This document shows positions 13,601 to 61,250 of a DNA stretch of 64,000 bases, one piece after another; the stretch's first letter is position 1; every line of letters starts with the position of its first letter. This DNA is from Massalongia carnosa (Eukaryota). Location: the NCBI GenBank assembly GCA_965645245.1, contig OZ287088.1, positions 434,001 through 498,000 on the forward strand, written 5' to 3'. Under the pieces are notes generated by a model, which did not search any database, was not told where the DNA came from, and worked only from the letters and a program-made list of their open reading frames with translations. The translations under genes were made by a program, and so were the position numbers.

Positions 13601-13777
13601 CCCTGGAGACGTGCCATCTGATGTAGATCCTGCCAGACCTGTGGAGCGTGTTATGTAATTGATGAACGACGGCCTGTGATTGCATACGTGCATGTCCGCT
13701 GCGCTGTCTAGTAGCCAGGTGTCTCTGTTGAGATGGTTTATGGTCATGACCTTCTGTAGAGTGGTAGTCATGACCAC
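10463..13777 (-). CDS. Copia-1 Pol (protease, integrase, RT, RNase H); last ~50 codons derive from pogo-1 and S2 sequence
   Basis: WLLDSAA, WHARLGH, HSDLVGP...QNGVSER, FVDD and YSDSDWAG motifs. Confidence 0.9.
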   Translation of the reverse strand: MVMTTTLQKVMTINHLNRDTWLLDSAADMHVCNHRPSFINYITRSTGLAGSTSDGTSPGRGMIRKTLALQDDSPSSVLILNNVLFIPQCPVNLVSLALLNQNNVYYDNVNWTLFNGISQNIIGYVPRVNTNVVLKTLDAPDVATHLMQTDESIFQWPNTSVYHTSAITDLSTWHARLGHLNLITCRAFLKRLDVSYSDNVNKDWYCSSCELGKATKIYNRTPQERATGIFQRVHSDLVGPIKPAGLLEEQYFFTFTCDASRYTHVYTGIKKSEWFDHLLTYYSLAQNKTGKSKPINIFRTDFGTELRSLKSDDWFLKEGITFEPSAPYSQEQNGVSERTGRTIMDMTRCTIIAGGIPDYLWTEVVLAMVHTKNVRPTNALSGKTPFEIYESKSPPLNHLRVLGSTVYVLIHEEERKGANSKSAKFLPRAQRGVLCGYDGCTIYRVFLEKDYRVIRVKDLRIHGDAISKNQTNVPTYEAIMTPDTVTPSKSTVISSPTTIPKRGRGRPRKHAQIEHALSLLSDTALDEPNHTPTYDDIDTEDPLVLLARTLEKEGSSGLEDYDALSQLDIAELQTYHQAMKGPHSESWSRSMDNEHNSLLENETWTLVRTEDMEPNHTALSGKWVYKLKRDVNGNITRYKSRWVVKGYLQQYGVDFEQTYASVVKPMAFRLLFAIAAHHDLDIERLDVVTAFLYGVIDQLIYVQMPKGYEKAGMICKLNKALYGLKQSPRLWYERLSEFLLTKLGLSKLHADHSIFSSSAGIRGPIVTSFVDDLNIIGPKGSPMISEVKKQLNIAFKMVDMGSISHCLGLKVERNRDNRTIKLSQSTYIEKVLEKFHMQNAKTTTTPMKEGSLFRNESQASESDIKQYQAIVGSIMFAMIETRPDIAYATSVVSRHAKNPGKSHMEAAKQILRYLSATRDRGITFGGGDLSIQGYSDSDWAGDKEDRKSTSGYVFMLNNGPISWASKRQKTVALSSTEAKYMALTLATKETIWIRLLMTELGLMQDDATPTVNVLEREGAIALKGDNQSAIALANNPVLHSRTKHIDIQHHFIRNDTNQELIAKKAQGRQKASRKGGVKARVLTVGEGQCKSQTWRLSDTRPRDM

Positions 13778-18900: not shown

Positions 18901-19811
18901 TATACACGGATGGGAGTGATAACCCCTTCGGAGTTGGTGCGGCAGCGGTCATCCCCAGCGACAACACACGGGTAGTAACCCGCCTCGGAACGAACAAAGA
19001 AGCCACAGTTTACCTCGCGGAACTAGTGGGCATCGACCTGGGACTGGCGGCGGCTATTGCACGATGGCAAGGGGAGATAATAATGGTTTTTGCAGATAAT
19101 CAATCAGCCATCAAATCAGTAGCCGACCCCGGAACTCAGTCAGGTCAGTTCATACTACGCGAGATTATTGGAAAACTCCACGCATGCCGGGAGATGCAGG
19201 CCAGAGTCAGACTCTGCTGGATACCTGGGCATATGGGAGTAGAAGGCAACGAGATAGCAGACCAAGTAGCAAAAGAAGCATCAGGCTGGTTAGAACCTAG
19301 CCAAAGTCCCTCCATCACCCACTTCGACTTCCTCGGACACACAGTGAAGTCGGCGATAAAACGCAACATGAGGACAATGATTAGCAAAGAATGGGCTGGG
19401 GATTGGGAGGCAGAAAAACGCGGACAGATGACAAAAAAACTCCTCCCCCAGCCCACTAACAAGGTCTTGCAGCTCTACCAGGGGCTTCACAAGTCAATGA
19501 GTTCCACCCTGGTGCAGATGAGAACAGGTAAGATTGGTCTCCGCAAGTATCTCTCAGATATAGGCCGCACCGAAACGGGCGAATGTCCATGCGGCTTCGG
19601 TTATCAAACAGTTCACCATGTGCTTCTGGAGTGCGTCAGGTACCATCGACTGCGCATGGAGACTATCTGGATAGGCCGGAAGGTGTTCGATCTCCAAGAA
19701 ATTTTTTGCGCCCCCAGACTGGCCAAGGCAGCATCCAAATTCATGCTATCCTCACGTCTCCTCGGCCAATTTGGAGACGTGAGGATAGCAACCGAACAAT
19801 CCACGAGTTAA
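15960..19811 (+). CDS. LINE ORF2: APE endonuclease, RT, RNase H, CCHC knuckle (1283 aa, uninterrupted)
   Basis: AIQEP, GDFNLHH, GVPQGSPISP, YVDD, YTDGS...WIPGH...GNEIAD and CPCG...HVLLEC motifs. Confidence 0.95.
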   Translation: MSEYNHYLSILQYNCNKSKNTVMADFLRREETMKYGILAIQEPWAGNPYQHTTHNPVKNGFHLLYPPETGEQELPPRVCMFVNKDIASASWKVTFHSPDLMTLHLEFPGETQRVINIYNIYNPSPSQGNYSTMLDLSKALEVEGEHIVVGDFNLHHALWTSEDYHHQHPEADQLLEILDQSELELLLPSGTITYDHRSAQSTIDLTFATPAVASAVLMCDVRRELDSDLDHYPIGTAFDITTVKRAIRSSRMWSKTDRKKLLDTLTDKLPAPRSVSTVQELDNLAHELVEAIQHAVETAVPLSRGCNHSKPGFTPECKEAVTLCRRLRRKHKETRSLEDWEAYREARNSKNKIVQKALKTTHRDRVEEATSTPDGLLKLAKWAKNRSTPFQAFTPTLMNGDGSKVTEASGKAELLRRQFFPIPDATNLEDIADYHYPEPIQFAPILAREITKAITKAAPPSAPGPDGLPNRILRDVLPLIMPTLVALYNASWELGHHPNAFRESTTVVFRKLAKADYSLPNSYRPIALLHTLGKTMEKIIPTRINHAVKTESLLPILHIGGRRARSPEHALHLLLEVIHAAWLNNEVATVLMLDISGAYDNVSHKRLLHNLRKRRIGGNIAKWIESFFQERKTTIAMPDYTSQSFTTNFGVPQGSPISPILYLFYNADLMEEEGPKKMNLGYVDDISKLIIGTSAEQNCRNLEASFMTREQKWADTHASKFAPAKFQLLHFIKGPSETDLNPPERAISLAGKTIKPQHTAYLGATFDDKLKWHAHLRKLEAKTSKRLGALGSLAGSTWGTSLASLRRIYQATILPQLTFGCSAWYVPEGGYGTLTQATAVLKAVRSIQRRAALIISGAFRTTSGPALDMELHLLPGRQRMEQAVNESLLRIRSSPLYAIIREIRAWTSQADSHYRYWSPLAKLESRLMTSGKCPQPWRLEVILPFIVEPWWSPPETHIASSKEEAIKEHDKMTSEPNQIVIYTDGSDNPFGVGAAAVIPSDNTRVVTRLGTNKEATVYLAELVGIDLGLAAAIARWQGEIIMVFADNQSAIKSVADPGTQSGQFILREIIGKLHACREMQARVRLCWIPGHMGVEGNEIADQVAKEASGWLEPSQSPSITHFDFLGHTVKSAIKRNMRTMISKEWAGDWEAEKRGQMTKKLLPQPTNKVLQLYQGLHKSMSSTLVQMRTGKIGLRKYLSDIGRTETGECPCGFGYQTVHHVLLECVRYHRLRMETIWIGRKVFDLQEIFCAPRLAKAASKFMLSSRLLGQFGDVRIATEQSTS

Positions 19812-27359: not shown

Positions 27360-28063
27360 CTAGCTGTGAATTCTATCGCTAATAAAGGGTCGAATGTACT
27401 ATAATAGTTAAAGATAAGAATCAACGAGATTTTAAGCGGCAACACATATGATTATGTTAACATCGATTCTTTTTGTATTCGTTTGATATAACATAATAAT
27501 AAATTAAGATAATAAACTAATACTTTCAAAAGTATAACGATAAACTGATATCTTACGTGAGTTTAATATCCTCGCTATAAAGTTGTTAACTGATATCCTA
27601 TAGAAAACTCATCTTCAGAATAATAAAAAGAAATAGTGTAGGACTACAACATATTATCTAGATATTAGTTAGGCGCTCTATACGTCGACCTAGATAGAAA
27701 TCTAATACAGACTATGTACGAAAACTAGTAAGATGAAGAAAGAAAGTTATGTACAGATCGCCGGTTAATAAACACTCATACCCGTGCTAAACCTAATGCA
27801 GGTTTTCTGAACCGTCGTTGAACTGCTCATATCACGAGTATTAATAATGTCACTTAAAGCAGTGCTAGTTCCGTTTTTGGTTAGATAAGGTGAATAGCAC
27901 TACGTCATATGCTGCCTGAGGTTAGAGCGTTGTAATCCGTGACACTTTACATTATTACTACGCATCTTTATCGATACGTTTTCATACTGACATCAATAAA
28001 AGACACGATATACGTAATCGTGAGAATTAATCGCTCAGTCGTAAAAGACGTAGAGTCTTTTAA

Positions 28064-28168
28064 CGTCGGGTTTTTCTTTTAAAACTCCACCCGGACACCA
28101 AAAATTATAGGGTTCGTCACAAACGGGTTGGATTATCAGAACAGAAACCCGACCCGTTGCGCAGCGAC
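28064..28168 (+). mobile_element. Partial copy of the 152-bp MITE
   Basis: Matches the 3' two-thirds of 53733-53884. Confidence 0.75.
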
Positions 28169-42700: not shown

Positions 42701-44966
42701 TTCGAATAATAGCTCCCTTTTCTGGCCATTCAATAGGCCATTTACCCTCATTGTGCCATGACCATGGATTCTCATCTCCCCGTCGGGGGTGTCTACCCAT
42801 ATGTCTGACGAAGTTAGGGTTATTTCTCCTATAAACCGTGATTTATCATAGGTCAGAGGGTTATCGTATCCAGAGTCAAAGATGACGCCTTTATGCAAGG
42901 GTTTATTTGCCCTAGATGTAACGTTCGCAAACGAGAAGGATTGACTAGGCAGTTCAATGTGATTGCCCTGATTATGTTGATCATTCTCTGCTTTTTGGGA
43001 GCTCTTTTTGACTGACTCCTCAGTTATTCCATCTAGTATTTTGGTGTCGGTGACCTTCTTAATAGCCACGAAAAACCGAATGTTTGACTGAATTTTCTGA
43101 CGTATTTTATTGCGTACGGTTTTATCTTCCTTCCATGCAGGGGGGCGAGCTGATTTGACGATATATGGGCATAGCCTGAACAGGTGTATTTTCCCACATA
43201 CGCACTTTCTATCCTTGAATCTGGCCTCTTTTGATTGGCCATTCTATTGACTTGATTGGCTAGGCCCCGGACCTTTATTTTCGTCTTGCATTTGCCCCTG
43301 CAGCGAGGCTGCATTAGCTTGATTTCTAGACGTTGATTGTGCCTCATTCAGGAATGATTCCACGGCTAAACGATATTCCCTGGTTGTCTCGTAAAATTCA
43401 ACCGTCGTCTTAGCAGCCCTATGCTGCATTACCCAGTTTTCACAGAAATTGGGCGCCCATTCCTTCCCTGATTGGAGAAATTCATTGATGAATATGGTCT
43501 CGGAGCCAAATAGGCCCGTTACATTGAGCTCAACAATTTGTCCCTTAATATTCTCCCAATCAGCTACCCATGCCTCTATTTTACTTTTAATGGGCGGGGT
43601 TTTTAGGGCTAGAAATTGCTCATGCAATTGCTCTATGACTTGGTCATCTGACCGCTTATATCTTGCAGCCAGAATTTTCACTATTTCCCTAACCGATGAA
43701 GCTATCTTATTTGGGGGGATGTATGCTCGTGCGGAGCTCTTTAGTGCATTTTCCACTATTCTGAGTCCTTGGGCGACCTTCTCCACCTTGTTTTCCTTCA
43801 TCTTATAGGCTGATATCTCCATTTTATAGTCCTCCTTTTGCTCAGCCGATAAATCGCCGTATTTCTAAGCCGATTTCGTGGCTATTACAACTCCACCTTC
43901 TATAATGGGGTAAGCAATTCCACCTGCTGGCTGTGCTTGAATAGGGACTTGATATTGTGAAACTTCCGGATATTCTCCCTCTTCGGGCTCCGGTTTTGAA
44001 CCATTGGGGTCCACATATTGCCATACCTTCGCTTTCTCGGATATTCCTTGTAATTCCCTAATCTATAGATGATAATTCTTGGGAGTTAGGGCGATCATCG
44101 TTGCTTTGTTGGTCTCCTCCATTTTGATCGTTTTGTTGGATCGTTTTGGGAAGAGGGTTTTATTCAACTAGATCAATGAATAGGAATTGAAGCTTCTATG
44201 CTCTCCGGGCTCATAACTAACAAGCTGTATGGGCTAATGTGGAATATGGGTGAAAAGGAGTGGTGTATATTAATCTATAGGAGGTCTAGGCTAGCTAACT
44301 GAGGGATATCTCATAGGGGTTCGTGGGTCATGCGACCCATGGCGGGTCATGTGACCTCTAATCGCCTGACAGTATGAGCTCATTTATTTGTCCAGAAATC
44401 CAAAGAAATTCGACATGTCGGCTACTATTCAAATAGAAAACAACCTAATAGAACCGAAAATGGACATACGAGCTCTGGGCCTCCAAATCACACCAAATTG
44501 AAATGGGGAGCCCACATACGGAAAACACTAGAGATGATGACGTCGCAGTCGCTGGCGCTCAACAAAATATCAATATCTACCTGGGGAGCTTCTTTCGCGA
44601 AGGCCCGGCAGGTTTACACCGCTGTCGTTTGCCCGGCAATGACTTATAGAAGCACCGTGTAGTACACACCCAGGGAAATCAAGAAAAACAAGGCCACGAC
44701 GTCTAAACTCAGCGCCATGCAGAACAAATGCTTACGTACCGTGAAAGAGGCTTTCAAGGCAATCATCACAACTATAGTAAGGCTTCTACGATTTCTTACT
44801 TTTTTAAACTCGTAAGTGTTTATTATACTGATAAAAGTTTAATATTCATAAATCTTGATTGATTGTTCGTGTTTTACATATGCAGCTGTCTGATAATAGA
44901 AAAGAATTTCACTTAAGTCAATGACTTAATCAGGTCGTTCGTTATCATCTTTTTCGTCAATATATG

Positions 44967-45118
44967 TACCCCGCGCAACGGGTTGGGTTTTCGCCACAAA
45001 AGTGCTTTTTCGCCACCGGGTTTTTCTCTAAAAACTTAACCAGGACACCAAAAATTATAGTACTTGCAATAAACGGGTTGGGTTTTCAGTAGAGAAACCC
45101 GACCAGTTGCGCGGTGAA
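44967..45118 (+). mobile_element. 152-bp hAT-like MITE, diverged copy
   Basis: Colinear with 53733-53884. Flanks AATATATG / GATATATA are a possible decayed 8-bp TSD. Confidence 0.8.
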
Positions 45119-45417
45119 GATATATAGAATAGACTAATTCGTTAATCGATAAATTCGTTTCAAATGAAGTGATATTAAATACTTATTTGTTTTGTTCTAG
45201 AATTTAAAACAAAATTAGTGACTAATAAGATTGCATTTTGACTGTCAACTTTTAAAGGTATAACATATTTCTTTTTCAATAAGTTCAATATTGAAAAATA
45301 TTATCTGTCTTTTTTATATCCAGATCAATCATCAATAAACGTATTCATATGATTTCCTTAATAAATCGGGAAATCGAGAGGACCCGCGAATTGGTCAAAT
45401 GGTCAACTAATAGGCTA

Positions 45418-46753
45418 CAGTCCCATGTCAAAAGTTTCCGACTCTACCCACGATTTTCGTGATTTCGCGTTTCAACCCCTCCAACCCATCAACTTTGACC
45501 TCATCATTTCACCATGCCACGCACTCCGTTGGCTTCAATTTCTGGTAATAAGCCTCGTAATACCGAATTAAATCAATGTTAAAGAGGAATGATTATTGGA
45601 GCCCAGGCGTTGGGGCATGCACCGGCCGAAACTGCAAAGATATTAAATGTGCCTCGAACCACCGTCTATTACACTCTTCAAAAGCACCCAGAACGCAACA
45701 ACGAAAAGTCCAAATCGCGATCGGGTCGGCCTGGAATATTTTCGGATCGCGATAGAAGACGTACCATCAAATTTGCACAAATCAATCCACGCATCACCTA
45801 TGCGCAGCTGCGTACGGAGGCCGGGGTGCAATGCAGTCGATACACTCTCTATCGGACGCTCAAAGACTACGGTCTAACAAACTAGCTGGCTAAAAAGCGG
45901 CCTTTATTGACGTCCGAGGTGGCAAAGAGGATATTGGAATGGTGATTGCTTCGGCGTGAGTGGACTTCTGAGCAATAGTCATTATATGGTCAGACGAGTG
46001 TTCGGTGGAAAAGGGGTCAGGAAAACAGCGTCAATTGATGTTCAGATTTCCGGAGGAAAAACGGAAAAAACCTATGATACAACCGTACGCCAAAGGCAAC
46101 GAGGTCAAGGTTATGGTATGAGGGGCTTTTTGGAGGAGAGAAAGGTCAGATCTTTACAAATTGGCCCGCGATATTGAAGCAAAGAAGATGGGGTACTCCG
46201 CGAATTCATATTTGGAATTATTGAACGATAATCTGCTTGGAATTTGGGAACCGGGCCTCATTTTCATGCAGGATAATGCATTGATTTATACTGCCAAAAA
46301 GGTGAAGAAATGGTTCGATGAAAACGGTATAACAATCATCGATTGGGCCACCTTATTCTCCTAATTTGAACCCCATCGAGCACGTTTGGTATGTGCTCAA
46401 ACAGCTCGTTTATTAAGTCAATCCGGATATCGATTCGGTGACTGGTAGTGATGATAATATCCGCGAGGTACTTTCGAAAGCGTTGGAATAAGCATAGGCC
46501 TTGATAGATGAGGAATTGTTGAGAAGTTTAATAGTGAGCATGGAAAGGAGGATTGAAGCTTGCATCCAATCGAAAGGATAGTATACGAAATATTAAAAAT
46601 ATATTTCTCAGCCCAAAGTCGTTGCTAGAATGTATTTAATCATCTTACGAAGTTTCAAGGCATCAAAATAAAAACTTGGTAGTTGATAATTCAAAGCAGT
46701 GGGGGGGGTAAAAAGTTGACGGGGGGCTGTCGGAAACTTTTGACCTAGTACTG
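45418..46753 (+). mobile_element. Tc1-like transposon (1336 bp), degenerate
   Basis: TA|CAGT...ACTG|TA with imperfect ~25-bp TIRs. Transposase has many stops; sibling of 57452-58787. Confidence 0.92.
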
Positions 46754-47078: not shown

Positions 47079-50000
47079 TGTTATAATCTACCTAGAGACA
47101 AGTCATAGGGGTACTAGAAACGAATACAATAAAAAGAAAAAGAAAAAAAAAGAAAAAGACAATCGACAACCCGAACCTGTCCCTATATATCCTCTACTGC
47201 GCTAGTATCCATATATTATAGTCGCGGTAGAATCTTCTCGTGACTGCAGGAACAAATCCGAAGGTACGGGAACGTATCGAAAGTTCCTACGCGTTTCCAT
47301 CTACGGTTTGGTGCCGAATTTATCCGAGTGCCGAGGTCGTGCCGAGTAGAATCGTGACACTACCCGCTTCAGATCGCGAGTCACCTGACCGCGATAAAGT
47401 CCGCGTTACCTCCAGGGTTTGATTGTCGAGCAGTTCCTTTTTTGTTGATCCGTTTAATCGGTGATTAATGCGGTTAGCGTGCAGATGATCATCGTGGCTT
47501 CACTGGGTTTCGTTTGTAAAATTCTTCCACTATCTCTTTTGCATTTTCGAAGCCTTCGGCTTCATACCATGTCAGATCTTCGTCTATTCCCTTCCATTTG
47601 ACCTTGAATTGAATCCTTCGGTAGCGTCTTCGTGCATCCAGGATGTCATCTAGTTCCCATTCCTCGTTCCCTTCAACCACTACTGGCGGTGGTGGTTCGT
47701 TAATCTGGCCTGGAAGTGGCTCGTCGGAGGCCTTCCGAAGTAGACTGGTGTGGAAGACATCGTGGATTTTCATTTACGGTGGGAGTTCTAATTGGCAGGA
47801 AGATCCTACTAGTTTCTTGACTCTGTAGGGACCAATCATTTTGTGATCCAGCTTTTTGGAGGTACGCTCCGTCTTGATGTTCTTTGTGGATAGCCACACC
47901 ATGTCTCCTTCGCTGTATGAGACTTCAGTTCGATGCCGGTCTGCCGCTATTGCTTGTCGTTCTTGGGTTTTTTTCATGTTTTGTTGAACGAAGTCCCATA
48001 CCTTTTTCATGTCGTCAGTAATGGCTCTGGCTTTTTCGTTAGCTAGTCTTTCCCTAGTGGAGTCTGCGGAAAGCTCGGTCGGATCGAAGCTCATTCTTGG
48101 CTCATACCCTTTGGTGGCCATGAACGGTGAGAGCCCTGTGGTGGCTGAGGGTGCGTTGTTGGCGGCGAACTCGGCTATCGGAAGTAGGTTCATCCAGTCG
48201 TCCTGGCTGTAGTTCACGAAACTCCGGAGGTGGCGCTCCATTTCTTGATTCGCGATTTCGCTCTGTCCATCTGTTTCCGGGTGATAGGCTGTTGACAACT
48301 TTGCTGTAATTCCGAGAATTTTGCACCAAGCCTTCCATACTGCTGAGACGAACTGCGGTCCTCGGTCCGATACCATGCTGATTGGAAGGCCATGATATCG
48401 CCATACGTTGTCTACAAGGAGTTTTGCTACATGGAATGTAATGTCTTTCTTTAGATAGCCGGTCCACTACCATCAGAATGGCATCATTTCCTTTGCTTTT
48501 CGGAAGACCCGTCACATAATCCAGGGTGATATCCCTCCACGGTCTTTCCGGTATGGGTAGGGGTTTCAATAGTCCGTTGTACTTGTCCCGAGGTGCTTTT
48601 GCTCGTCGACAAACATGGCAATTTCGCACGTAACGACGAATTTCCTTGTTCATGTTTGGCCAATAGTAGTTCCGGGCGATTGTATGAGTAGTTCTGGCCA
48701 TTCCGGGATGTCCTACCGCTACTTGATCGTGAATTTGCCGGATAACCTCCAGGATGGTTTTTTTCTTGTCCGGTACCCATAAGCGCTTTTGCTTATATAG
48801 CTGTCCGTTTTCCACAATGCAATTCTTAATGTCGGGTAACGAGTCGTCGGTGGTGTCGGTTCTTTCTATGGCTTTTCTGATTCTGGTACAAAGTTCATCC
48901 TTCAGGTTTTCCTGTTTTATTCATTCGTCCAGGGTCGGTGGGTCCTGTTCGGGAATTTCTTCTGGTTCCGTTGCTTCTTCGATTGGTTCGAGTTCAAATT
49001 TTTCAGGGAGTAACAGTGTCTGCAGCTGATGTTGCTGCCTTTCGTCATCATCGTCCTGGGGTTTGTCATTTGGCCTTCGGGTCAGGGCGTCCGCTTTCTC
49101 ATTCTTCTTTCCGGGTCGGTATGTAATGAAGAAGTTGAATTCCGAAAGGAACTCTGCCCAGCGAGCTTGTCGTCTAGTTAGTTTCTTAGTTGACATGAAA
49201 TATTCTAGACTTCGGTGATTGGTGAAGATCTTCACTGGCAAGTCCGTACTTTCCAGTTCGGGTTTCCATTGCTCGAAGCAGCAATTATCGCTAGCAGTTC
49301 CTTGTCATATATTTCGTAGTTACATTCAGCCGGGCTTATGTTCTTGGAAAAGAAGGCTACCGGGTGAAGTTCTCCATCGTCACCTTCTTGTGATAGCACT
49401 CCTCCATTGACATGATCCGAAGAGTCAGTTTCCAGATAGCACTGCTTGTTTCGGTCGAAATGAATCAGGATCGGGGCTTCCCTAATTTGATTCTGTAGAG
49501 TTCGGAAAGCTTTTTCACATGCCGAGGTCAATTCGAATATTCGTTCTTTCTTTGTCAACGCATTCAGCGGTTTAGCAATCTTTGAAAATCCTCTAATAAA
49601 TCGGCGATAAAAATTGCAGAAGCCAATGAACGAACGGACCTCCCGTAGGCATGTTGGTTGCCATTCCTGAATAGCCTTGACTTTGGCGGGGTCCATACGA
49701 ATGCCATCAACACCGATAATCAGTCCCAGATATTTCGTTTCCGTCACGTGAAACTCGTATTTGTCCACGTCCGCTCGGAGTCCTGCCTCTCGAAGTTTTG
49801 ATAGAACGGCACGTACATGTTCTCGATGCTCTTTCAGATTCTTGCTATAAATTAGGATGTCGTCCAGATAAGCCGTGCAGAAGTTGTCCAAATATTCAAA
49901 GAGCACGTCGTTGATAAAGTGCTGCCAGGTCGATGGTCCTCCGGAAAGTCCAAACGGTAATACCTTGTATTTATAGGCACCGAAATGGGAGTTAAACGTG

Positions 50001-53000
50001 GTCAAATCTTCAGATTCCATAGCCATTCGGAGTTTGTGAAACGCTTGTCGGATGTCGATTTTCGAAAAGATCTTGGCCTCTTTTAGCTGTGCCAACGTTT
50101 CTTCTATCAGAGGGATCGGATAGCGGTCTCTCTTTGACAACTGGTTCAACCGTCGATAATCGACACAAAAGCGAAGTCCTCCATTAGGTTTCCTCGCTAG
50201 AAGAATCGGGGACGAGCAAGCAGCGTGACTGGCCTCGATAAACCCCTTTCGAAGGTTGTCCTCGAGGTATTTCTTGACGAATTCGAGCTCTCTTTGCGAC
50301 ATACTCCTAAGTGGGCTATGCCCGTGATCTTTTAATCCTTCCAGAATAATTCGGTGGTCATATGGTCGAAGAGGTGCCAGCGTGTCCGATACAGCCTTGG
50401 AAAAGACGTCCAGAAACTCGTGATATTCCGGGGGAACTACCGTCTTCGGGTCAATCGGTGGGCGGTCTTCTTTGTTGAGCTGATACTCGATGTCTTTCAA
50501 AGAGATGGAGAAAAATTCGACGTCCTTTCGTCTGGAAAGCAGTCGGTAAGCAGCAGCCCCTATCATGGCCATCTCTATCGGCTTATCTTCGGTTGAATGT
50601 CCATCCACGGTTTCCGTAGATGGTAAGTGTGTTAGTCTTTCTGATTGTCTAACATCAGCCTTGTCAGCTACCACATTCGACTGCATGGACGGTTCTGGTT
50701 TGATCTTTTTGGGTTCTTTATGTTCAGTCTTTTCTTCTTAGGTCCGTGTCAATATCATGACCTTTCTGGGTTCTGTAGTCTTCGGGGTCTTCGTCATTTC
50801 TGACTTCTGAAGTGGTTTGGGTGCGCCTGGATGGGAACAGTGGCCGGGCCTGAAGATTATCTTGTCCAGGGCCATGTCGATAACTACTCCATGTTTCCTC
50901 ATCCATGGTTTGCCCAGGATCATCTTATGTTGGCCTAGAGTGGTGATCAGAAGAGGCGCCACCGTCTCTTTGTGGTCTTGTACGGTGAGGGTGGGGTAGA
51001 TGGCATGAGTGATGTCTTTACCCCGTCTAACATCAAAGCCTATCACCGATTTCGGTCGTGTCAGTTTCTGAGGGGAAATTTGAAGCTTTTCACAAACTTC
51101 ACGCGCTGTTGCTTCATCAATAAAAGCATGTCCTGTAGCACCAGTGTCCAACAGTCCCATTACTTTCATTTCTTCGCTGTTACCTAGCCTACACTGTATG
51201 ACTAGAGGTTCCTCCGTAAATAAATCGCCTGGTAAACAGCTAGATGAAATCAACAAAGGTTCACCTCCATCCGCGCCTTTGGTGAAGGTCATTCTTTTCC
51301 CGAGTCAGCAACCTCAGCGATTTCTTGTACTTTCGCTGGCCGATTCTTCTTTTCGCAGTTCCTCGATATATGTCCAGTTTCTTTGCAAAAGAAACAACGA
51401 CCTTCTCTAGTCAGTCGTTCCTTCTCCTTCTCCGTCATGTAAGAGGTGGTTCTAGTGGTCGGAGTGCTGGTGATGGGTCGAGGTGGTACGTAGGTCTTGG
51501 TGGAAGTCGTCGTTTTCGTGGCCGTGGCGCTGGGGGTCGGAGCCGTGCTAGAACGTCTTTCAGCATAACGTTCCATACTAGCCTTACTCCGGTCTGAGTC
51601 CTTGAGGTCCTGGTATAAGCGTTGGTACTTTTGCGCAAACGCATAGAGGTCGGTTGGTGCCTGGTCGCCGGTGGCTAATTGTCGTGATATTTCCCAGGAA
51701 AGCTTGTACTTCAACTCGCTGATTAGCGTGGCCCCGTTATACTCTAACTCAGCTGCTAGGCGCTGGAACTCAGCCCAAAAGGTGTTAAAGTCCTTGTTTC
51801 CTTGCTTGAGGGCTCGGAAGCTGTTCATTGCATTTTGTTTTCGGTTGGGTCGCCGTAGGTGCGTTCCAATTGGTCAAACATTTCTTCGGCCGTCACAAAG
51901 GGGCGAATTGCACCTTTTCGGAGTCGAGGTTCCAGGTGCCCCATGGCTTCTCCTCCGACTCGGTTCTCCACGTACGCCTTCTTAAGCACTTCTGTTGGCA
52001 TGTGGTCCTCGTTGGCCGCTAATTTGCTTCGCATCTTTGTCAGCCAATGGTCAATGGAAATCTCCTTTCCATCAGTAAAAATGGGAGGGTCAAGAAGTTT
52101 CATGGACTTCTTCTTGTCGATAGTGCCCTCGGTCCGTTGGGTGCTTGGTGTCCGAGAAGGAGAGCGAGGGCGCGACCGTTCCCGAGTCTTGTTGGTTAGT
52201 GTTGCGGAGGCCTGGCGACGTGCTTCCCTCGGTTCTTCCTTTTGGTATTCGACAATTCCTTCTAGCTGGTTCATTCTTTTCTGGAAGCTTTCGGCCATGT
52301 CAGTGGCGAGATTGCTTCTGTCGATGGAGTCGTTATAGGCTTTCTTCAGTTCCTGAAGCATGTCAGACAAAGCCTGGCCGTCGTGCTTCATCCATGCCTT
52401 CAGTTGTCGAAAGTTCTCAATCATCATGCGACGAAGCGAGATAGTGAATAGATTTCTACCATTGCGCCACCTGTCCTTCCCGACCAAAAGGCACAATACT
52501 TAGTCCGCAGACCAAGCTCTATTCTACTATAACTGGGACTCCTGCTATGTTCGCTGTAGGTCCTGCCGTCCGCACCACGCTTGGTCGAACCGTTACACAT
52601 CAGAGGTTCCGTTACATCCAATTCGTCATCTGTCTCTTGGGTTGTCGGAATCATCGATTCTCGTCGGGTTGGGAGTTCAATCCCGGTTCCTGTGGATCAT
52701 GCCATCGCTATAGGGGAGGCCTCCTTCGGTGTCTATGTCTAGTTCTGGTTCGGTTCTGGTTCAGTCCTGGTACGGATTCTGGTTCGGGTTCGGATTCTGG
52801 TGCCAACACTGTGGCGATCTTCGGTTTCTTTCGGTTCTTCGTGTTTCGTTCAATTCGTCGTTTGGGTTCTGGGTTCTTCTGATTTCGTTCTTCGGGTGAG
52901 TTCTTTTATATCCCTCACGTAGGATAGCAGGGTAAGTATGATCTTTATTGTAATGTTATGATCTACCTAGAGACAAGTCATAGGGACACTAGAAACGAAT

Positions 53001-53231
53001 ACAATAAAGATAAAGAAGAAAAAGAAAAAGACAATCGACAACCCGAACCTGTCCCTATATATCCTCTACTGCGCTAGTATCCATGTGGTATAGTCGCGGT
53101 AGAATCTTCTCGTGACTGCAGGAACAAAATCGAAGATGCGGGAACGAATCGAAAGTTCCTACGCGTTTCCATCTACGGTTTGGTGCCGAATTTATCCGAG
53201 TGCCGAGGTCGTACCGAGTAGAATCGTGACA
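47079..53231 (-). mobile_element. Full-length inactivated chromovirus-type Ty3/gypsy (Gypsy-C); LTRs 52954..53231 and 47079..47359
   Basis: Paired LTRs, TSD ATTTC / ATTTA (4 of 5). gag CFFCKETGHISRNC, LLDTGA, YLDD, integrase and chromodomain (WELDDILDARR...VKWKG). Confidence 0.95.
52427..52597 (-). mobile_element. Solo LTR, family S1, inserted in Gypsy-C gag
   Basis: 171 bp, TSD CATCA (52422-52426 / 52598-52602). Confidence 0.92.
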
Positions 53232-53732
53232 ATTTATTCTTGAATAGAATCTCGAAACAAAAATTTTAACATCGAACAATTCTATAATTCGAGATTTCGA
53301 CGAACGAGAGATTAGAATCTTTTGTCATATTTTGACAGACGCCTATATTATCTTCAGTTTTTACTAGCTTCGCTGAAATAATCGACTGCTTTTTTATCCT
53401 TTCGCCCGCAAAAAAAATCTAATATCAAATAAACTTCGTTATTAGAGTTCTATTATTGGTTCTCGACGATGTACTCTTGTCTTATGTAAAGATTAATCAA
53501 TTCATGAATTAAAGAAAAGATTTCCTCGGCAAATGTTGAGATAAGTAAAATTCATATATATATCAAGATTTTTTATGTTAAACTTGTTAGACATATCTTA
53601 CTCGCAGCTTTTCTGTTCTTGATAGATTTCACGCAAGAACACGATGCTTTTTTAACATTTACTGCGTTCACGATTAGATTATCGATTTTCATTTGAAAGA
53701 GTTGTAGAAGAGTCGTATCGAAGACCTATAGT

Positions 53733-53884
53733 TACGCCGCGCAACGGGTTGGGTTTTCGCCACAAAATTGCTTTTTTGCCACCGGGTTTTTCTTTCAAAA
53801 CTCAACCCGGACACCAAAAATCATAGGGTTCGCCACAAACGGGTTGGGTTTTCAGTAGAGAAACCCGACCCGTTGCGCGGCGTA
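53733..53884 (+). mobile_element. 152-bp MITE, hAT-type
   Basis: TIR TACGCCGCGCAACGGGT...ACCCGTTGCGCGGCGTA. 8-bp TSD CCTATAGT / CCTACAGT with one transition. Confidence 0.88.
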
Positions 53885-53969
53885 CCTACAGTAGGTAAGT
53901 TTCGATAATCGCTAAGTAGAATATCGAAGAAAATTCTGATCTCAAATTACTCTTTGTGCTTATATTATG

Positions 53970-55205
53970 ATTATGATGATGTATTCATACTCCGATATGT
54001 CACCGGCCGTAGGCCGGCCCATGCGGGTAAAGCTATCTAAGTTATGTTATATGGAAACCCTTTTTCAGGTGTAAAAACCATATCCCTTGAGACCTATCCG
54101 ATGTGACACCGGGTCGACGTCGGACAGGAGACGCAGAGCGAAAATTATGTGAGAACTGTGACGTCTTGTGAGATAAGGAAAAGAGAAAGTGAAACTACTG
54201 TTAATTGTACAATAGTATAGATGCCAGTGAGAATTGGGTCAGTAGACCTGTTTTCATTAGCCAAGTAGTTAATATCTTTAGAGTTTTTGATGTTTTGGTC
54301 AGCTGTTGATAGTTGTTCGTGCCGGCGGCGCGAAACATCTGTTCTCTATTGTCAATAAGTCTACATAACATACTTACGTGTTCTGGAGTTTGTCTGTGCC
54401 AGCCACATGGGCAGGCCGGTGAGGTGACGGCGGGGACCCGTCGCTGGTAGAGGAAGTCAGCTAGACCGATCTTACCGGTGCGGATCTGTGTTGTCAGGGC
54501 GCTTTCTGCCTTTTTTAGCAGCGTGTGTATTTTCAGTCGTTTTTTGCTCAGTGGGACTGATTGCGCTATGGAGGGTTCGGTGACGCGATTTTGATATGCG
54601 CTTCACGAGTCGTTCCAGACTTTCAGCTGTCGTGCTTTAATTTTCTGCATTTGTTTTTGACGAGCCAACGGTGCTACGGAGACTTCGCGGAGATGCGCTG
54701 GGGAGGGGTCGGACCATGGTGGGTGTGCTTTGGGTGGTTGAACGATTTTTGCGTCGATCAGTAGGTTTTTGGCCCAGATGTGCTTCAGCTCTCCCGGAGT
54801 GGGTTTTTCAAGGCGTTTGCGACCTGCCTTGCCTTGAAGTTTGTTAAATATTTTGTTTGCTGCATGCGGAAGAAATGACCTTCGATTGACCTCCAGCTCG
54901 GAGTCGATGTCTGGCCTGCGCCTGTAGCGTGTCGAGGTGTACATCTATGGGTACTATGTATGTCTCTGCTTCAAGAACTGGAATGGGAGTGGCTTTAAAG
55001 GTACCTGCTATGGTGCGAAGGCAGTTGTTTTGCATAACGGAGAGCTTGCTCGTCGACGTTTTTGACTTTTTGACTTCTTTGGGCATGTGCCGTACGGTTG
55101 ACCCGTATGTCATGACCGGACGCACTACGGCGCTGTAAACTTGCCTTGCTTTGGTGAAGGTGGCACCCCAAGTCGATGTGGAGATTTTTGTCAATGCCAT
55201 GGACT
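53970..55205 (-). mobile_element. LINE 3' fragment (LINE-2 family, no RNase H) with 3' UTR and CAT/AAT tail
   Basis: ALTKISTSTWGATF...QIRTGKIGL...CPCGWHRQTPEHV; homologous to 44540-44770. Confidence 0.88.
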
Positions 55206-56026
55206 AAGAATGATAAAATAGAGTTGACATCTCCTTCGTGAAGTCTCCATCCCAGTTTTCGTTCACCTCACTAGTGCGTTTTACGGCCCAAGACTATTGA
55301 TGAATTCTACGATTGGGGTGAACGACGTCCTTTTCGCCCAGGTCAAACCCAGTTTACTCCTTAAGCATATATCAAGGGCGAGTCTAGCCGTAGCCCATGC
55401 GCCAGCGAACAGACGGGGTCTCGTTACGAGCGAGATAGACATTCCCTGCTCTATATACACCAACATGCGCATACTGTCCTCTCGGGCTATGCAGACGGTC
55501 TCCGTACGGTGGCCGCCATTGCATACCACGCCTCACGGGTTTTTTACGCCCACTTCGCGTTATTCATAAAGGTCTCCCGTTTATGAACCGACCATGTCTC
55601 GCAGGGATTTCGACCACTATGCTCCTGACCAGGCAGTATAGTATCGATTTTCCGTCCCTACTAACCAAAACGAGTCGAGGACAACTCGGAGGGGTGCTCG
55701 TTTGAAATTCGTCTATTAGCTCAGGGCCTAGACTGTTAGCAATTAACGGGTTCCTCGTATATTGCCCTCTTCTTGCCCCAAGGGTGTCCTATTTGATGAC
55801 TAGGTTGCCTCCACCATCCCCGGTACGACTCCGGTTCGGGCCGTGTTGCTCACGGTAGCCATCAATCGGATGGTTTTCATAACCCAAATCCCTTGTATCG
55901 TGTAGGGTGTGACCCTACACTATGTGTCTATATGTTTTATTTCTTTCAGCCGGAGGGCTCCGTGTTGTAGACGAAGGAGACCCGTGTGATAGACATAGCT
56001 GACCCGTGTCGTACGTCTTTAGCTCT

Positions 56027-56757
56027 CAGCCGATGACTGCATGAAAGGACTTGAACCTTTAAGAGTATGACCGAACGTTGTTAACGAGGTCTATGAAAAT
56101 CTTATTAACGAGGTCTTCGAGAATAATATAAACGAAGTTCCGCTGAACTCTTTTCATTCGTTTTGTGATCCATCGAGGTCTACCCGTGTCAAATCCACAC
56201 CATGCCCGTGTCAAAATACATTATTTTCAGCTGATGACTGCTAGAAAGGACTTGAACCTCTAAAAATATGTACTCCGATATTAACGGGGTGCAGGTCTGT
56301 CTTAACGAGCCCCCGCAGAACCCCCTTCACAGGGACGTGTTATTGATTTGTGACTTTGTTTTTTGTGACTGTGTGTTTTGTGACTGTGGGTTTTGTGACT
56401 GTGTTTTGTGACTGTATGTTTGGGACTGTGTGCTTTGTGACTGTGTGCTTTGTACAATGTGTGATTGATGACTATGTGTTTTGTGACTCTATGTTTTCCT
56501 CGATTTTATTTAACAGGCCGGGCCTATTAAATGGGATATTGTTATTCTGCTCCGAGATGGAGTTTTCTTGAGGTGACACCATTCGCCCCGGTGCCTTTAC
56601 GCGTTCTGTTGATCCCAGCTGATGACTGCATGGGGAGACTTGAACTCTCAGGAGCTAGAACGCGTGTCGACTTTGCCCGGGTGGGGGATGATGCGGCTCC
56701 TTTGGTCCACATCTTCTTCCAGCTGATGACTGCATGAAGGGACTTGAACCCTTAGAA
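56027..56757. repeat. Four copies of a ~35-nt structured motif (cores start at 56027, 56228, 56616, 56720)
   Basis: Consensus CAGCTGATGACTGCATG-N5-ACTTGAA-N5'-A with complementary, covarying arms. Confidence 0.85.
56348..56495. repeat. Degenerate TTTGTGACTGTGTG-type minisatellite (~10 units)
   Basis: Directly visible tandem repetition. Confidence 0.85.
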
Positions 56758-56937
56758 GCATGGTGCAGGGACGCGCACATTCTACCCCCGGGCGGTTGGC
56801 CTTCGTATCCTCTTCCGTACGTACGTCTGCGACGCGTGTGAACGCGTTAAATTAGCATTGTTTTGATGCGAATAGATAGGAGCAAATCTATATGTTTGAC
56901 GGTCGCCCCACGGTGAGGCCTTTGGCGTCTCCGTGGT

Positions 56938-57361
56938 GAGGACCGATAGTGTAGAAGGAGGAGGACCGATAGTGTAGAAGGAGGAGGACCGATGGTGTAG
57001 AAGGAGGAGGACCGATGGTGTAGAAGGAGGAGGACCGATGGTGTAGAAGGAGGAGGACCGATGGTGTAGAAGGAGGAGGACCGATGGTGTAGAAGGAGGA
57101 GGACCGATGGTGTAGAAGGAGGAGGACCGATGGTGTAGAAGGAGGAGGACCGATGGTGTAGAAGGAGGAGGACCGATGGTGTAGAAGGAGGAGGACCGAT
57201 GGTGTAGAAGGAGGAGGACCGATGGTGTAGAAGGAGGAGGACCGATGGTGTAGAAGGAGGAGGACCGATGGTGTAGAAGGAGGAGGACCGATGGTGTAGA
57301 AGGAGGAGGACCGATGGTGTAGAAGGAGGAGGACCGATGGTGTAAAAGGAGGAGGACCGAT
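56938..57361. repeat. Tandem array, 18.4 x 23 bp (GAGGACCGATGGTGTAGAAGGAG)
   Basis: 424 bp of near-perfect head-to-tail units without spacers. Confidence 0.97.
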
Positions 57362-57451
57362 CTGTGCTTATATTATGTTTATCATGTTATTATTAAAAAA
57401 TTGATGAGGAAAGACGCAATTGAATCTTTAATATTCTTTTTATTTAAGTTA

Positions 57452-58787
57452 CAGTACTAGGCCAAAAGTCTGCGGCCCCGCACCCCACCAACATTTCAAT
57501 CATTCTATTCAATCGACAATCAACCACGTCACGATTGCTGAAATGTCTTGAAACTTCACATAATGATTACCTACATACTAAACAAGAATTCCCCCAAAAA
57601 TTGGTTTTTGATATTTAGTATACCATCCTTCCGACGCTATACACGCTTTTATCCTTCTATTCATGCTCTCTATTAACCTCCTCATCATTTTCACATCTAT
57701 CAACGTCCAGGCTTCTTCTAACGCTTTCCAAAGTACCTCACGAACAGTTTCATCACTGCCGATCACCAAATCTATGTTCGGGTTGACTTGATAGACGAGC
57801 TTTTTGAGCACATACCAAATATGCTCGATGGGATTTAAATCAGGTGAATAGGGGGGCCAATCGATGACCTCTATGCCGTTCTCATTGAACCATTCCATTA
57901 CCTTTTTAGCCTTATATATAGGTGCGTTATCCTGCATGAAAATGAGGCCCGGTTGCCAAATTCCAAGCAGATTATCGTTCAATAATTCCATATATGAGTT
58001 CGCCGAGTACCCCATCCTCTTCGCAGCAAAATCACGAGCCAATTTGTAAAGATCTGACCTGTCATCTCCCCAAAAGCTGCCCAGACCATGACACTGAATC
58101 CTTTGCCTTTGGGGACAGGTTGTATCATCTCTTTATTCCATTTTTCTTTCGGCAATCTGAACACCCACTGACGCTGTTTTCCTGACCCCTTTTCCACCGA
58201 GCACTCATCTGACCATATAACTCTTGACCACTGCTCAAAAGTCCACTCACGCCGCAGCAAGCACCAATCCAATCGTTTCTTGGCCACCTCAGGCGTCAAT
58301 AAAGGTCGTTTTTTAGCCACCCAGTTGGTTAAACCATACAGTTTGAGTGCCCGATAAATAGTCGTACGACTGCAGCCGAGCCCCACTTCTAGTTTGATTT
58401 GTGCATAAGTGATTCGTGGATTGATTCGTGCATGCTTGATGATATAACGTCGATCGCGTTCTGACAGCACTTCAGGCCGTCCAGAACGTGATTTAGACAC
58501 GCCGTCGTTGCGAATTGAGTGCTTCTGAATGGTGCTCTGCACGGTCGATTTAGTGAAATTAAGAGTCTTCCCAATCTCGGTCGGTGTGTGCCCCAACGCC
58601 TGGGCCCCAACAATCATACCACGTTGATATGGCGTCAATTCAGTGTTACGAGGCCGATTACCACTTATGGGGGTCAAAGAAGCACGAAGCATGGTGAAAT
58701 GATGAGGTGGAAGATGGGGGTTGATGAGTTGAAAACGCGAAATCACGAAAATTACGGGTTGGGCCGCAGACTTTTGGCACGAGACTG
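57452..58787 (-). mobile_element. Tc1-like transposon (1336 bp); transposase ~58692..57578 with one frameshift
   Basis: TA|CAGT...ACTG|TA with ~27-bp TIRs. WSDE, QDNA and SPDLNPIE motifs. One T missing at ~58073. Confidence 0.93.
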
Positions 58788-61250
58788 TAGGACTTAAAAT
58801 GCTCAACATGCAATAAAAATAATATGGCAAACGATTGTCTTAAGCTGTCATTTAGAAGCGTTATGATAAATTTCTACAAAGTTTCATGTCGAGTACTTGA
58901 TCAAGGCGCCGTTCAACGTAAGATTCTTGTTCTTGAAATATCATGCACAGGAAGAAACAGTACTCGATCGTTTTTGATTAAGCAGTTCTTGCTAAGAGAT
59001 AAGTCACTTGATACTTTTTCTCTCGTGTCGTCTTCGCGTATCAGTAATCTCACGCTTGACATTTTAACGTTATCTGAGAATGAGCGATATAGCGGTAAAT
59101 CGAAAGAATCGAGACTTTCTACATTTAGTGATAGCAGAAACTCCACGAAAGCTGTCAGTCAAGCACAGTCGAGCTCATCAATTATTGTGACAATTAGCAG
59201 CTTTTTCTTGAATATCCATGTCATAATTAAAATGATTCAAGTCAGGGTTGAAGAAGCTGTCGCTTTTGAGTATTTCAAAATCGAGTGATTGAAATGATCG
59301 GAAATCAGATTTCGGAAATCAGTGAGGTAAAGATTAAAGTGTTTTGAAGTTAAGATTTTGGCACAAAGACTGACAAGAGCTCTTCATTGCTGTAATGCCG
59401 GCGTATAATTGTCTGATGTTTCGCAAAGAAGACAAAGCTCTCAAAGCATTTGAGCAGAGTCCATATTGTCATACACCGTCGAAAGAGAAGCACATAAGCC
59501 CACACATGCAAGGCCTTCTTCAGTTTCCGCAAGGTAGGTAACGATGTGCTTTATTCCAAAGCCAACCCAAATAACATTGCCATACGAGCCATTTTCTTAA
59601 GCTTTTGAATAGCCTCCGTGAGACGCATTAGAGCTGCCTGGTCAAGCGCGAAATTGGAGCATATCAGACGGCCCATCCCGATGGTAAAGGCATCGATGTG
59701 TTGTGCAAAGCTTGCGCTTGCGGGAACGACTGATGAAGAAGCCATTGTTTGTTATGAGTGTTTCTTGGCTGGTTATGTTTAATAGAAGAAAAGCTCTAGG
59801 ATTTGAATAGGACTTAAAGCCTCGTGTTTAGCTAGAGGATTAGATAATCCATCATCGGCAAATGACAGCATAGACAGCATTCTTAAGGCGAACCTTTATA
59901 GACGGGAGCGGTGTAAAGATTATCGTGCACAACCTCAATCGTCGATATTTTCTCGTTAAGATCTGCATCTGTAAAAGTATTGGAGTGGTCGCCGACGACG
60001 AGAACGCTACAGCGATGACGATCTTTGCTGACTAGAAGTCGACTTGGTCAGAGAAAAGTACAGTAGTAAGAAGCCTCGCCTGTCATGACAGATTTGGTCT
60101 TATCTTAGCTTTCGAGAATAAACTCCAGGAAGCAAACCCGTTCTTTTCCCATGAGCGGTATTCCTTCGAATCAATGGTCTGTCTAAAGTAGGATCTCGAG
60201 CGAGTAACGTGGCACTCGCGAGTTTCCTCTCATCTTTATTGATTTGATCGAAGTAAGTTTCATCGCGTCTACGACAATGCAAGCTTCAGGAAAGTTATCA
60301 CTATAACTCTATATAGTATCTCATATTCATCATTTCCTTTCGCTTCTTCACTGCCGCAATGTTTAGCTCGACAATCTGTTGCTTTAGAATCTTGATCTCG
60401 AGATCCGCCTTCAATCGCTGTAACTTGCTTTTTCTAAGTTGATTATACTCTCGGGAATATACGAGAAAAGTAGCTGAAACACATGTTACGAGTTTGCCTG
60501 AATGCAAGAAATGTGAATGAGAAGCAAAAGTGAGTTCAGTCGAGAGTGAGAGCTTGACAAGTAGATCAGATGATAAAGATAGAGAGATGTTAACTTCTAT
60601 TTTACTCTCTTACAAGAAGACATTAAATATTAACTTTGTCACTCGTCAACGTCACGGAACGAAAGAATCAAATAAAAAATGTATCACAAGACTCGCGTGA
60701 CGTTCACTGATAAGATACATATACTCGAATGCAATTCGCAAGCGAGCTCTCGAGAGTTCCATTTCCGTAAAAGCGCTTTTGTCCTCTATGCTCTTCTTGG
60801 AAGTCACTCCAGAAAAACAAAAAAGCCTTGCCGGTCAAGATAGCTGAATCATCGCGGTTTTTGTCAGTCCACCACGATGGATAAAACACACCGAACTCAA
60901 TCGCCAGAAAATCAAGGTATATATAGCATTTGCGGTAGAGGCATTGAAGACGCTATAAACAGATGAAAAAATCTTGTAAAAATCCAAAGTCGACTGGGAT
61001 GCAGCGAGGAATGCGACTGACAAGTCAGTCCAGTCTCACGAGATCGGCGATCCCTCGCTCCGTGTTGCATGTCACCAAACTCGTCTTGCACCAATACTTG
61101 TGATAAATCCGAGTGTCTTTTCTCAAGAGTCCATCAGCTACAGATGGTAGTCAGTAGTGTTTCCTATTAGCGAGATCGTTCCAGTGCACGTGAATTAGTC
61201 TCTGGATAACATTAGATAAACTACATATTATAACGCCCAATTCCGATTTT

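Follow-up and report, generated by a model that had tools for sequence, protein, structure and literature searches.

Introduction

In the rice blast fungus, a non-coding RNA known as WEIRD is found joined to a long interspersed nuclear element (LINE) known as MGL, the two together making up the chimeric retroelement MINE of Magnaporthe grisea/oryzae (Gogvadze et al. 2007, PMC2104539; Fudal et al. 2005 cited there). According to the sections of that survey on which we draw, a full-length 1.1 kb (1113 nt) WEIRD adjoins MGL copies with 28 different truncation sites, direct repeats of 10-20 bp flank the chimeras, the switch sites follow the consensus GCC*A/U, and the authors explain the whole by template switching of the reverse transcriptase (RT). 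The same sections report no solo copy of WEIRD and no homologue in other genomes, and leave open its function, its origin and the existence of relatives (PMC2104539). Here, we analyse 64,000 nt of DNA from Massalongia carnosa (GenBank assembly GCA_965645245.1, contig OZ287088.1, positions 434,001 to 498,000 of the forward strand), a stretch hereafter called the window, in which a repeated motif with a tRNA-like hairpin is, as far as its sequence can tell, a component of a chimeric LINE retroelement of the MINE type.

This arrangement, a non-coding module followed by a truncated LINE, has so far been described only in the rice blast fungus, and searches of open-access literature turned up no paper on relatives of WEIRD or on a structured motif within it. 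A related case recounted in the same source is that of the U6 snRNA-L1 chimeric retrogenes of mammals, in which a small or non-coding RNA, copied completely, has become joined through RT template switching to a truncated LINE, on its 5' side, with target-site duplications around the product (PMC2104539). U6, however, is a host gene with a function of its own and with solo genes, whereas the 5' partner considered here is long, seen in chimeras only and provided with repeated structured units.

Anatomy of the composite element

The composite and its main parts, in coordinates of the window, are as follows.

53979..57362, minus strand: whole composite retroelement of the MINE type (non-coding 5' module plus 5'-truncated LINE), bounded by direct repeats matching at 22/24 positions
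55204..57362 (~2.2 kb), minus strand: non-coding module, the WEIRD-like 5' partner, in the order 23-mer array, four units, block B, block A, 3'-terminal domain
53979..55203, minus strand: 5'-truncated LINE part (remnants of the C-terminus of open reading frame (ORF) 2, and 3' untranslated region (UTR)), with a thumb-like region at 55203-54847 and a CCHC region at 54602-54204
55203-54204, minus strand: C-terminal third of LINE ORF2
53955..53978: candidate target-site duplication on the LINE 3' side (TGTGCTTATATTATGATTATGATG), 92% identical to 57363-57386
57363..57386: candidate target-site duplication on the module 5' side, matching 53955-53978 at 22/24 positions

The LINE part was delimited by tblastn with the window's own intact LINE (15960-19811), which the composite matches at aa 789-875 and 1166-1276, and the same LINE protein pieces adjoin the module at other loci. 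These loci, 35 in number (L001-L035), were found in metagenome contigs with a loop-anchored exact pattern, some of them overlapping or near-identical (L013/L018, L005/L017, L032/L033, L002/L028, L003/L024/L026, L004/L010, L006/L016). Wherever the parts are visible their order in RNA sense is constant, that is, motif units, block B, block A, ~200-300 nt and LINE ORF2, block A being seen in 23 of the 36 sources and a downstream LINE in 17.

The LINE, of the kind that has an APE endonuclease and an RT, is joined to the module in the same sense throughout, and what varies is the point at which it begins. In residues of the reference ORF2 (tblastn), it starts at 7 in L005, 307 in L008, 480 in L012, 626 in L034, 681 in L022, 709 in L035, 714 in L007, 779 in L013/L018, 789 in the window, 1126 in L002/L028 and 1172 in L001, L019, L021, L027 and L029, which makes eleven distinct start points; Pfam recognises Exo_endo_phos_2 (L005) and RVT_1 (L008) in the downstream ORFs. 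The module end is constant. Eleven copies of one subfamily are alike up to ...ATCTATCCTTGG(C) and diverge directly after, and in other subfamilies the module likewise ends in ...(C)CTTGGC. In the window the junction lies between 55203 and 55204 (...AUCAUUCUUAG / UCCAUGGC...), and contigs from three other public runs (X2, X5, X6) break exactly there and go on with differing sequences, while in one contig of 8.2 kb the LINE part that follows the module is shorter.

The composite is also delimited on its outer sides, since direct repeats matching at 22 of 24 positions surround 53979-57362, which shows that it was inserted as a whole; left of ~53973 the contigs of other copies diverge. This duplication is seen for a single composite, that of the window, the flanks of the other loci being short. 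Two features of the MINE type were thus found, namely a constant 3' end joined to a variably truncated LINE, and a duplication flanking the chimera. We consider this account of the anatomy and context of motif, module and LINE fusion very likely to be correct.

Two simpler relationships between module and LINE were tried and rejected. The module is hardly the 5' UTR of the LINE itself, because its fixed end joins many LINE positions, including positions inside ORF2. Nor is it likely to be, in a head-to-tail array, the 3' UTR of the LINE before it, since no match to LINE protein was found ahead of the motif arrays. No solo module without a LINE was seen, though most locus flanks are short.

The likeness to MINE, as far as the sections of the survey mentioned above describe it, extends to the complete non-coding 5' part, its constant 3' end, the variably truncated LINE, the flanking target-site duplication, the lack of any solo 5' part among the copies seen and G/C-rich junction ends (module GGC or GCC here, GCC*A/U there). 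Across L001-L035 the base that follows the GGC or GCC of the module is often T or A, and this resemblance to the Magnaporthe junctions would be understandable if a microhomology of 2-3 nt guided the template jump, as it may do. Differences lie in the 5' part, for which these sections report no structured motif, no T-loop hairpin and no homologue in other genomes, and in its length, 1113 nt for WEIRD compared with ~1.0-1.3, ~1.95 or ~2.2 kb here. Two published 20-nt WEIRD primers, taken from a second source cited for them (PMC3978060), match neither the window module nor the loci when <=5 mismatches are allowed, a result that says little at this divergence.

One further data set is of interest for the abundance of the element. 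The contig set X1, whose kind of library is unspecified, yields 5641 pieces over 53950-56900 with a summed depth of hundreds of thousands, and the composite, or parts of it, must therefore be extremely abundant in X1.

A repeated and covarying unit

The motif was brought to attention by a preliminary description of the window, made from the letters and the ORFs, which reported four copies of a three-way junction with a T-arm-like hairpin, nearly invariant in its loops and changing together in its arms, and took it for a candidate new structured RNA or an array of B boxes. The four units are the following.

56000..56090 (core 56017-56071), minus strand: motif unit 1, R1 score 69.2 bits
56202..56287 (core 56218-56272), minus strand: motif unit 2, with closing helix CCCGU/ACGGG and a long outer stem, R1 score 64.7 bits
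56599..56665 (core 56606-56660), minus strand: motif unit 3, a variant whose outer stem is lengthened by ACGCGUUCU/AGAACGCGU, R1 score 64.5 bits
56710..56764 (core), minus strand: motif unit 4, R1 score 68.7 bits

The copies are real and confined to one strand, the pattern CAGCYGATGACTGCNNGRRRGRACTTGAAC giving four matches in the window (at 56027, 56228, 56616 and 56720, all spelled on the plus strand with 0-1 mismatch) and none in 100 dinucleotide shuffles. Their arms are exactly as first written down, with inner arms AAAGG/CCTTT, AAAGG/CCTCT, GGGAG/CTCTC and AAGGG/CCCTT and outer arms GCTCT/AGAGT, TATTTT/AAAATA, TCC/GGA (lengthened by ACGCGTTCT/AGAACGCGT) and CTTC/GAAG. Unit 1 has the full set of parts (closing helix CUCGU/ACGGG, outer stem, T-arm-like hairpin and small hairpin CAG-UCAUCGG-CUG), and the ACGCGT-flanked variant type of unit 3 recurs in L005 and L008.

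The preliminary description had proposed that a covariance model be built and further homologues sought, and covariation persists when this is done. A relaxed pattern gave 87 instances with 48 distinct 55-nt cores, from which a covariance model, R1, was built; in 28 sources R1 finds 77 strong matches and two at chance level, and in the window its matches are the four known copies only, all on the minus strand. Over the 48 distinct cores the outer stem P1 (4 bp) is paired in 93.2% of cases, the T-arm-like stem P3 (5 bp) in 97.1% and the small stem P2 in 98.6%, with double-sided changes in 15 of 18 pairs and invariant loops. Neither the observed pairing nor the covariation score was reached by any of 500 shuffles, and pairing fell to 44-55% in a slid-partner control in which the 3' partners were moved by 1-3 columns. 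An instance of such an exchange is the C-G to G-C change in P2 of two L030 copies. The compensatory change first seen in four copies is hence confirmed on a much larger set, and it extends to a further helix (below).

The strand from which the RNA is read can be told from the wobble pairs, since an A.C cell on one strand corresponds to a G.U cell on the other. In minus-strand sense the ratio of G.U to A.C cells is 27:4 for P3, 13:3 for P1 and 19:3 for the closing helix. These ratios identify the minus strand of the window as the one that gives the RNA, in keeping with the minus-strand T-arm reading first put forward.

Constancy of the loops could in principle reflect a mutational cold spot. 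The subfamilies compared differ by 23-35% in neighbouring sequence (block A identity 65-77%), yet their loops are constant, whereas decayed copies such as L015 and L027 do carry loop mutations; because decayed copies mutate in their loops while divergent subfamilies keep them, the invariance is ascribed to selection.

The four window copies correspond to the apex of a larger unit of ~90 nt. At its base is a 5-bp closing helix, CYYGU/ACRRG, which arises from the conserved boxes TTAACGAG and CCCGTG (plus-strand spelling) and is paired in 91.9% of cells over 20 whole units; for one of its pairs 17 of these units have U.G, and for another 10 have C-G, 5 have U-A and 2 have U.G. There follow an internal loop with conserved UAAUACUGG, an outer stem of 4-11 bp, and a three-way junction that bears a 5-bp hairpin with a canonical T-loop (G-UUCAAGU-C) and a 3-4-bp hairpin with the loop UCAUCAG. 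That the motif represents the apex of a ~90-nt minus-strand RNA unit with a conserved predicted fold is, in our view, well supported. A partner complementary to either loop was sought elsewhere in the module and none was found.

The loop UCAUCAG of the small hairpin and the 3' end of the LINE, ...ACAUCAUCAU in RNA sense (window 53955-53990), have UCAUCA in common, whether by mimicry of the LINE tail or by chance.

The non-coding module

Apart from the units, the module is made of the parts listed here.

55289..55669, minus strand: block A, 66-77% identical to 23 sources by blastn
55771..55927, minus strand: block B, 71-77% identical to many loci by blastn
55204..55276, minus strand: 3'-terminal domain, predicted by RNAalifold from 7 divergent copies
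56347..56497: 15-mer tandem array (TTTGTGACTGTGTGT, ~10 copies), between units 2 and 3
56938..57361: 23-mer tandem array (GAGGACCGATGGTGTAGAAGGAG, 18.4 copies, 99% matches), at the extreme 5' end of the module

Of 36 sources, 23 share the module at 65-77%, and its parts always have the same order and orientation. Its ORFs have no Pfam match. Blocks A and B were also considered as a decayed RT domain, an idea that was given up when they showed neither a Pfam match nor a tblastn match to the intact LINE.

Structure is not confined to the units. In the last 50-odd nt of the module the terminal CUUAG (elsewhere CCUUGGC) is predicted to pair with an upstream CCARGG, around helices of 6 bp and 4 bp; 15 pairs are predicted, 9 of them with compensatory change, and G.U and A.C cells stand at 11:0. 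With a paired 3' domain that has the same wobble bias, the whole module would therefore be a structured RNA that shares its sense with the LINE.

The units occupy the 5' half of the module, 1-4 or more per copy, at periods of 104-388 in the window; in one subfamily the period is 183. Module size varies as well, from ~1.0-1.3 kb in some subfamilies through ~1.95 kb in one to the ~2.2 kb of the window, tandem arrays included. One subfamily has ~860 nt of module before its first unit, and the extent of 5' truncation differs from copy to copy, as it does in retro-copies. The 23-mer array is a recent expansion, because it is absent from the metagenome relatives examined. The 15-mer array repeats the hexamer TGACTG, which is also found inside the conserved GATGACTGC of the motif (plus strand). 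Finally, a second stretch of tRNA-like appearance (GCCTC...GGTTCGAATC...GAGGC) is present at the 5' end of the long-form module in L021 (~630-730 in RNA sense, reverse strand of the locus), where neither ARAGORN nor Rfam calls it.

Comparison with known structured RNAs

Similarity of the unit to a tRNA begins and ends with one arm. The T-arm consensus GTTCRANNC is present in 45 of the 48 distinct copies, the 5-bp stem is closed by G-C, and the loop UUCAAGU fits G53-T54-Psi55-C56-R57-A58-N-N-C61. It differs from a tRNA T-arm or B box in that a D arm, an anticodon arm and an A box are lacking, strand continuity is reversed, and loop positions 59-60 are invariant. The absence of a D-arm and an anticodon arm, remarked on at the outset, is matched by the searches, in which ARAGORN called 0 tRNA genes in the window and 0 in 19 loci, and the Rfam tRNA model had no match at E up to 10 in window 55400-57400 or up to 1 in the loci.

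Nor does the unit belong to another catalogued family. The family had not been recognised in the preliminary description, which suggested Rfam as a check, and Rfam 15 indeed gives 0 matches in the window at gathering score; by E-value there are only an unrelated SpR10 match outside the motif (55400-57400) and a chance mir-506 match in an AT-rich flank (loci). Readings of CUGAUGA/UCAUCAG as a hammerhead, a C/D-box k-turn or an anticodon loop were checked by eye and discarded, the defining strands being out of place.

The candidate new structured RNA of the preliminary description thus survives in part. It is structured, it is read from the minus strand and it has no Rfam family, but it is not free-standing, its copies being internal units of a LINE-fused module. 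The same description had named a match to a tRNA-SINE (short interspersed element) or a transposon subterminal repeat as what would speak against it; the motif, borne as it is by a retrotransposon, comes close to this, although it is neither a tRNA-SINE nor a DNA-transposon subterminal repeat.

In its layout, the unit is most readily compared with RNA elements of other retroelements. Structured elements are known in the packaging signals of retroviruses, in the R2 5' RNA, which binds the R2 protein, and in the Alu domain, which binds SRP9/14. Conserved hairpins, invariant loops and a place in a 5' non-coding region are common to these and to the units described here, and there they serve protein binding and access to reverse transcription. 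The units differ in having no sequence or Rfam relation to any of them, and binding is in their case only proposed.

A possible mechanism

Chimeras of this anatomy would arise if the LINE RT, after copying part of the LINE RNA, jumped to the 3' end of the module RNA and copied it to its 5' end. In such a scheme the motif might act at the RNA level as a handle for protein binding, with a fold like a tRNA elbow or a packaging signal, which would keep the module RNA with the LINE ribonucleoprotein (ORF1p/ORF2p) or with a host tRNA-binding factor at the ribosome. The handle would make the module a preferred acceptor for template switching, so that it could later be mobilised in trans, and tandem duplication of units would raise avidity. 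Inheritance of arrays of 2-4 units at different insertion sites seems to suit a binding role and not efficient cleavage of each unit. A handle function is a possibility that we regard as doubtful, and to the explanation as a whole, anatomy and handle function together, we would give a little less than an even chance.

A bolder version is more speculative still, and we think it unlikely to hold in all its parts. It states that WEIRD-like RNAs form a widespread and so far unrecognised family of highly structured fungal RNAs that hitch-hike on the 5' ends of LINE cDNAs, that the unit is a new T-loop fold mimicking the elbow of a tRNA and capturing the LINE ribonucleoprotein or the ribosome, with the effect that the RT would jump to this RNA in preference to others, and that the paired ...CCUUGGC is the landing site. 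As part of the same unlikely conjunction, the RNAs would propagate solely by being copied onto the 5' ends of LINE cDNAs.

Several points weigh against a structured RNA that hands itself over to a LINE. As for structure, many copies of the unit are related, not independent, and the shuffle control ignores kinship; in the outer extension of P1 no more than 48-72% of cells are paired, and neither strand is favoured (G.U 28, A.C 37). Folding of single sequences on the minus strand is unremarkable for the four window units (z = 0.22, -2.39, -3.09, -0.05), and the full structure is the minimum-energy fold in unit 4, whose three-way junction is reproduced, and in L035 only, although the closing helix and outer stem of unit 2 both appear in its minimum-energy fold. 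With single-sequence folding weak and inconsistent, the structural case therefore rests on covariation. As for the tRNA likeness, the alignment has the 5' strand of the outer stem, not the 3' strand, continuing into the T-like stem. As for sampling and identity, the loci were retrieved by the motif itself, so that modules free of it are invisible to this sampling, the module is likened to WEIRD by architecture, and its RNA is predicted from DNA. Lastly, a constant upstream flank followed by a variably 5'-truncated LINE also marks site-specific LINEs such as R2, and all junctions seen lie at one position of the module.

Alternative explanations

The alternative that fares best, though we consider it unlikely, is that the units act as DNA, as tandem internal promoter or enhancer monomers in which the invariant loops GTTCAAGTC and GCAGTCATCAGCTG (with an E-box-like CAGCTG) are sites for transcription factors. 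An element copied from RNA requires an internal promoter, as is established for LINEs, and the mouse L1 5' UTR has tandem ~200-bp monomers that act as DNA promoters and lack RNA covariation. The units resemble these in being tandem, in lying in the 5' part of the module, itself the 5' non-coding region of a LINE-type element, and in varying in number (from 1 to 4 between copies). They differ in that their stems covary with a strand bias, and factor sites would leave unexplained both the double-sided changes that keep stems paired and the strand-specific excess of G.U over A.C; the ~860 nt of module that precede the first unit in one subfamily also sit badly with a promoter.

An array of TFIIIC-binding B boxes, in which the T-arm-like hairpin serves an RNA polymerase III (Pol III) promoter or a chromatin boundary that protects the element, had been among the first proposals, and appears to us improbable. 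Of 48 copies, 31 have the B-box consensus GGTTCRANNCC and 43 its relaxed form RGTTCRANNCY, and 4 of 10 modules have 0 runs of T4 on the sense strand. Yet an A-box-like match (<=1 mismatch) lies 15-75 nt upstream in just 1 of 56 units, as in the shuffled control (also 1), the depletion of T4 relative to shuffles is not significant (P = 0.03-0.94 per module), the window copy has 5 T4 runs, and no tRNA is called. Invariance as strict as that of the B-box core extends to positions 59-60 and to all of the second hairpin, which TFIIIC binding does not call for. The Pol III transcripts known to us are, moreover, far shorter than a module of 1-2 kb. TFIIIC binding at the DNA level could still be an added property of the units, which would leave the second hairpin, positions 59-60 and the wobble bias unexplained.

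To a similar degree, it seems improbable that the module is simply the multi-copy target of a site-specific LINE that inserts at ...CCTTGGC, the motif belonging to an unrelated repeat, which is where the single junction position and the parallel with R2 would lead. Such a target should resume beyond the 3' end of the LINE, where there is no module but 24 nt from upstream of the module 5' end (22/24, a single case). The module copies, besides, are themselves 5'-truncated at differing points in the manner of retro-copies, and the lack of LINE-free modules among the copies seen, most of them with short flanks, points the same way.

The weakest candidate, also an early one, is a self-cleaving ribozyme, or a signal for RNase P or tRNase Z, that frees the element RNA from read-through or releases small RNAs: ribozymes are known at the 5' ends of retroelements (HDV-like ones, named after hepatitis delta virus, in R2 and other LINEs), a three-way junction with ~25 invariant unpaired nt is typical of small catalytic RNAs and CUGAUGA is present on the plus strand, but there is no Rfam ribozyme match even at E up to 10, CUGAUGA is here a hairpin loop on the G.U-disfavoured strand where a real hammerhead has it as a junction strand followed by stem II and GAA (neither being in register, and copy 3 having no GAA there), the conserved bases lie in hairpin loops and not in junction strands, the topology is the mirror image of the acceptor/T-arm stack of tRNA that RNase P and tRNase Z read, and arrays of 2-4 units that appear to be inherited intact through retrotransposition would be incompatible with efficient cleavage of each unit, all of which makes this reading the least probable of those considered.

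Genomic neighbourhood

The window is repeat-rich eukaryotic DNA of fungal appearance. Its long ORFs include Copia, LINE (endonuclease, RT and RNase H), Gypsy, MULE, pogo and Tc1 genes by Pfam, as well as transporters of the major facilitator superfamily; a large DNA virus with tRNA-like genes, considered for the window, was dropped on account of these Copia, Gypsy, LINE, MULE, pogo and Tc1 genes. Closest to the motif are three elements.

Long terminal repeats at 47079-47359 and 52954-53231: Gypsy element
53726-53891: miniature inverted-repeat transposable element (MITE)
From ~57578: Tc1-like element

The MITE, of ~166 bp, has three copies in the window (53726-53891, 44961-45114 and 28058-28166), with terminal inverted repeats of 31 nt that are 90% complementary. 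Two diverged copies (71-84%) of a Tc1/mariner-like transposon, at 45415-46606 and 57598-58790, are inverted relative to each other and 11-13 kb apart, and bracket both the composite and the Gypsy element. On the plus strand, at 44549-44761, lies another fragment of the LINE family seen in the composite, with 67% aa identity to the thumb-like piece and no module adjoining it.

The LINE ORF at 15960-19811 looks intact (1283 aa, with endonuclease, RT and RNase H), and there is a Copia pol ORF of 1104 aa at 10463-13777. Such long open transposon frames suggest little or no repeat-induced point mutation in the genome from which the window comes, unlike several of the metagenome relatives, which are heavily AT-mutated.

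Conclusion

Together, the window and the 35 metagenome loci extend the MINE architecture to several divergent subfamilies, in which the 5' partner appears to be a structured RNA under selection, with a repeated, covarying and strand-specific unit, a tRNA-like T-loop and a paired, fixed 3' end. A word of caution for annotation follows from these elements, that is, that tRNA-like hairpins in repeat-rich fungal DNA need not mean tRNA relics or Pol III elements, and R1 can be used for finding modules of this kind in fungal genomes. For the biology of LINEs, the units and the 3' end are concrete, mutable elements with which to ask how a LINE RT picks its acceptor RNA, and they open to testing the question of whether the module RNAs are parasites of LINEs.

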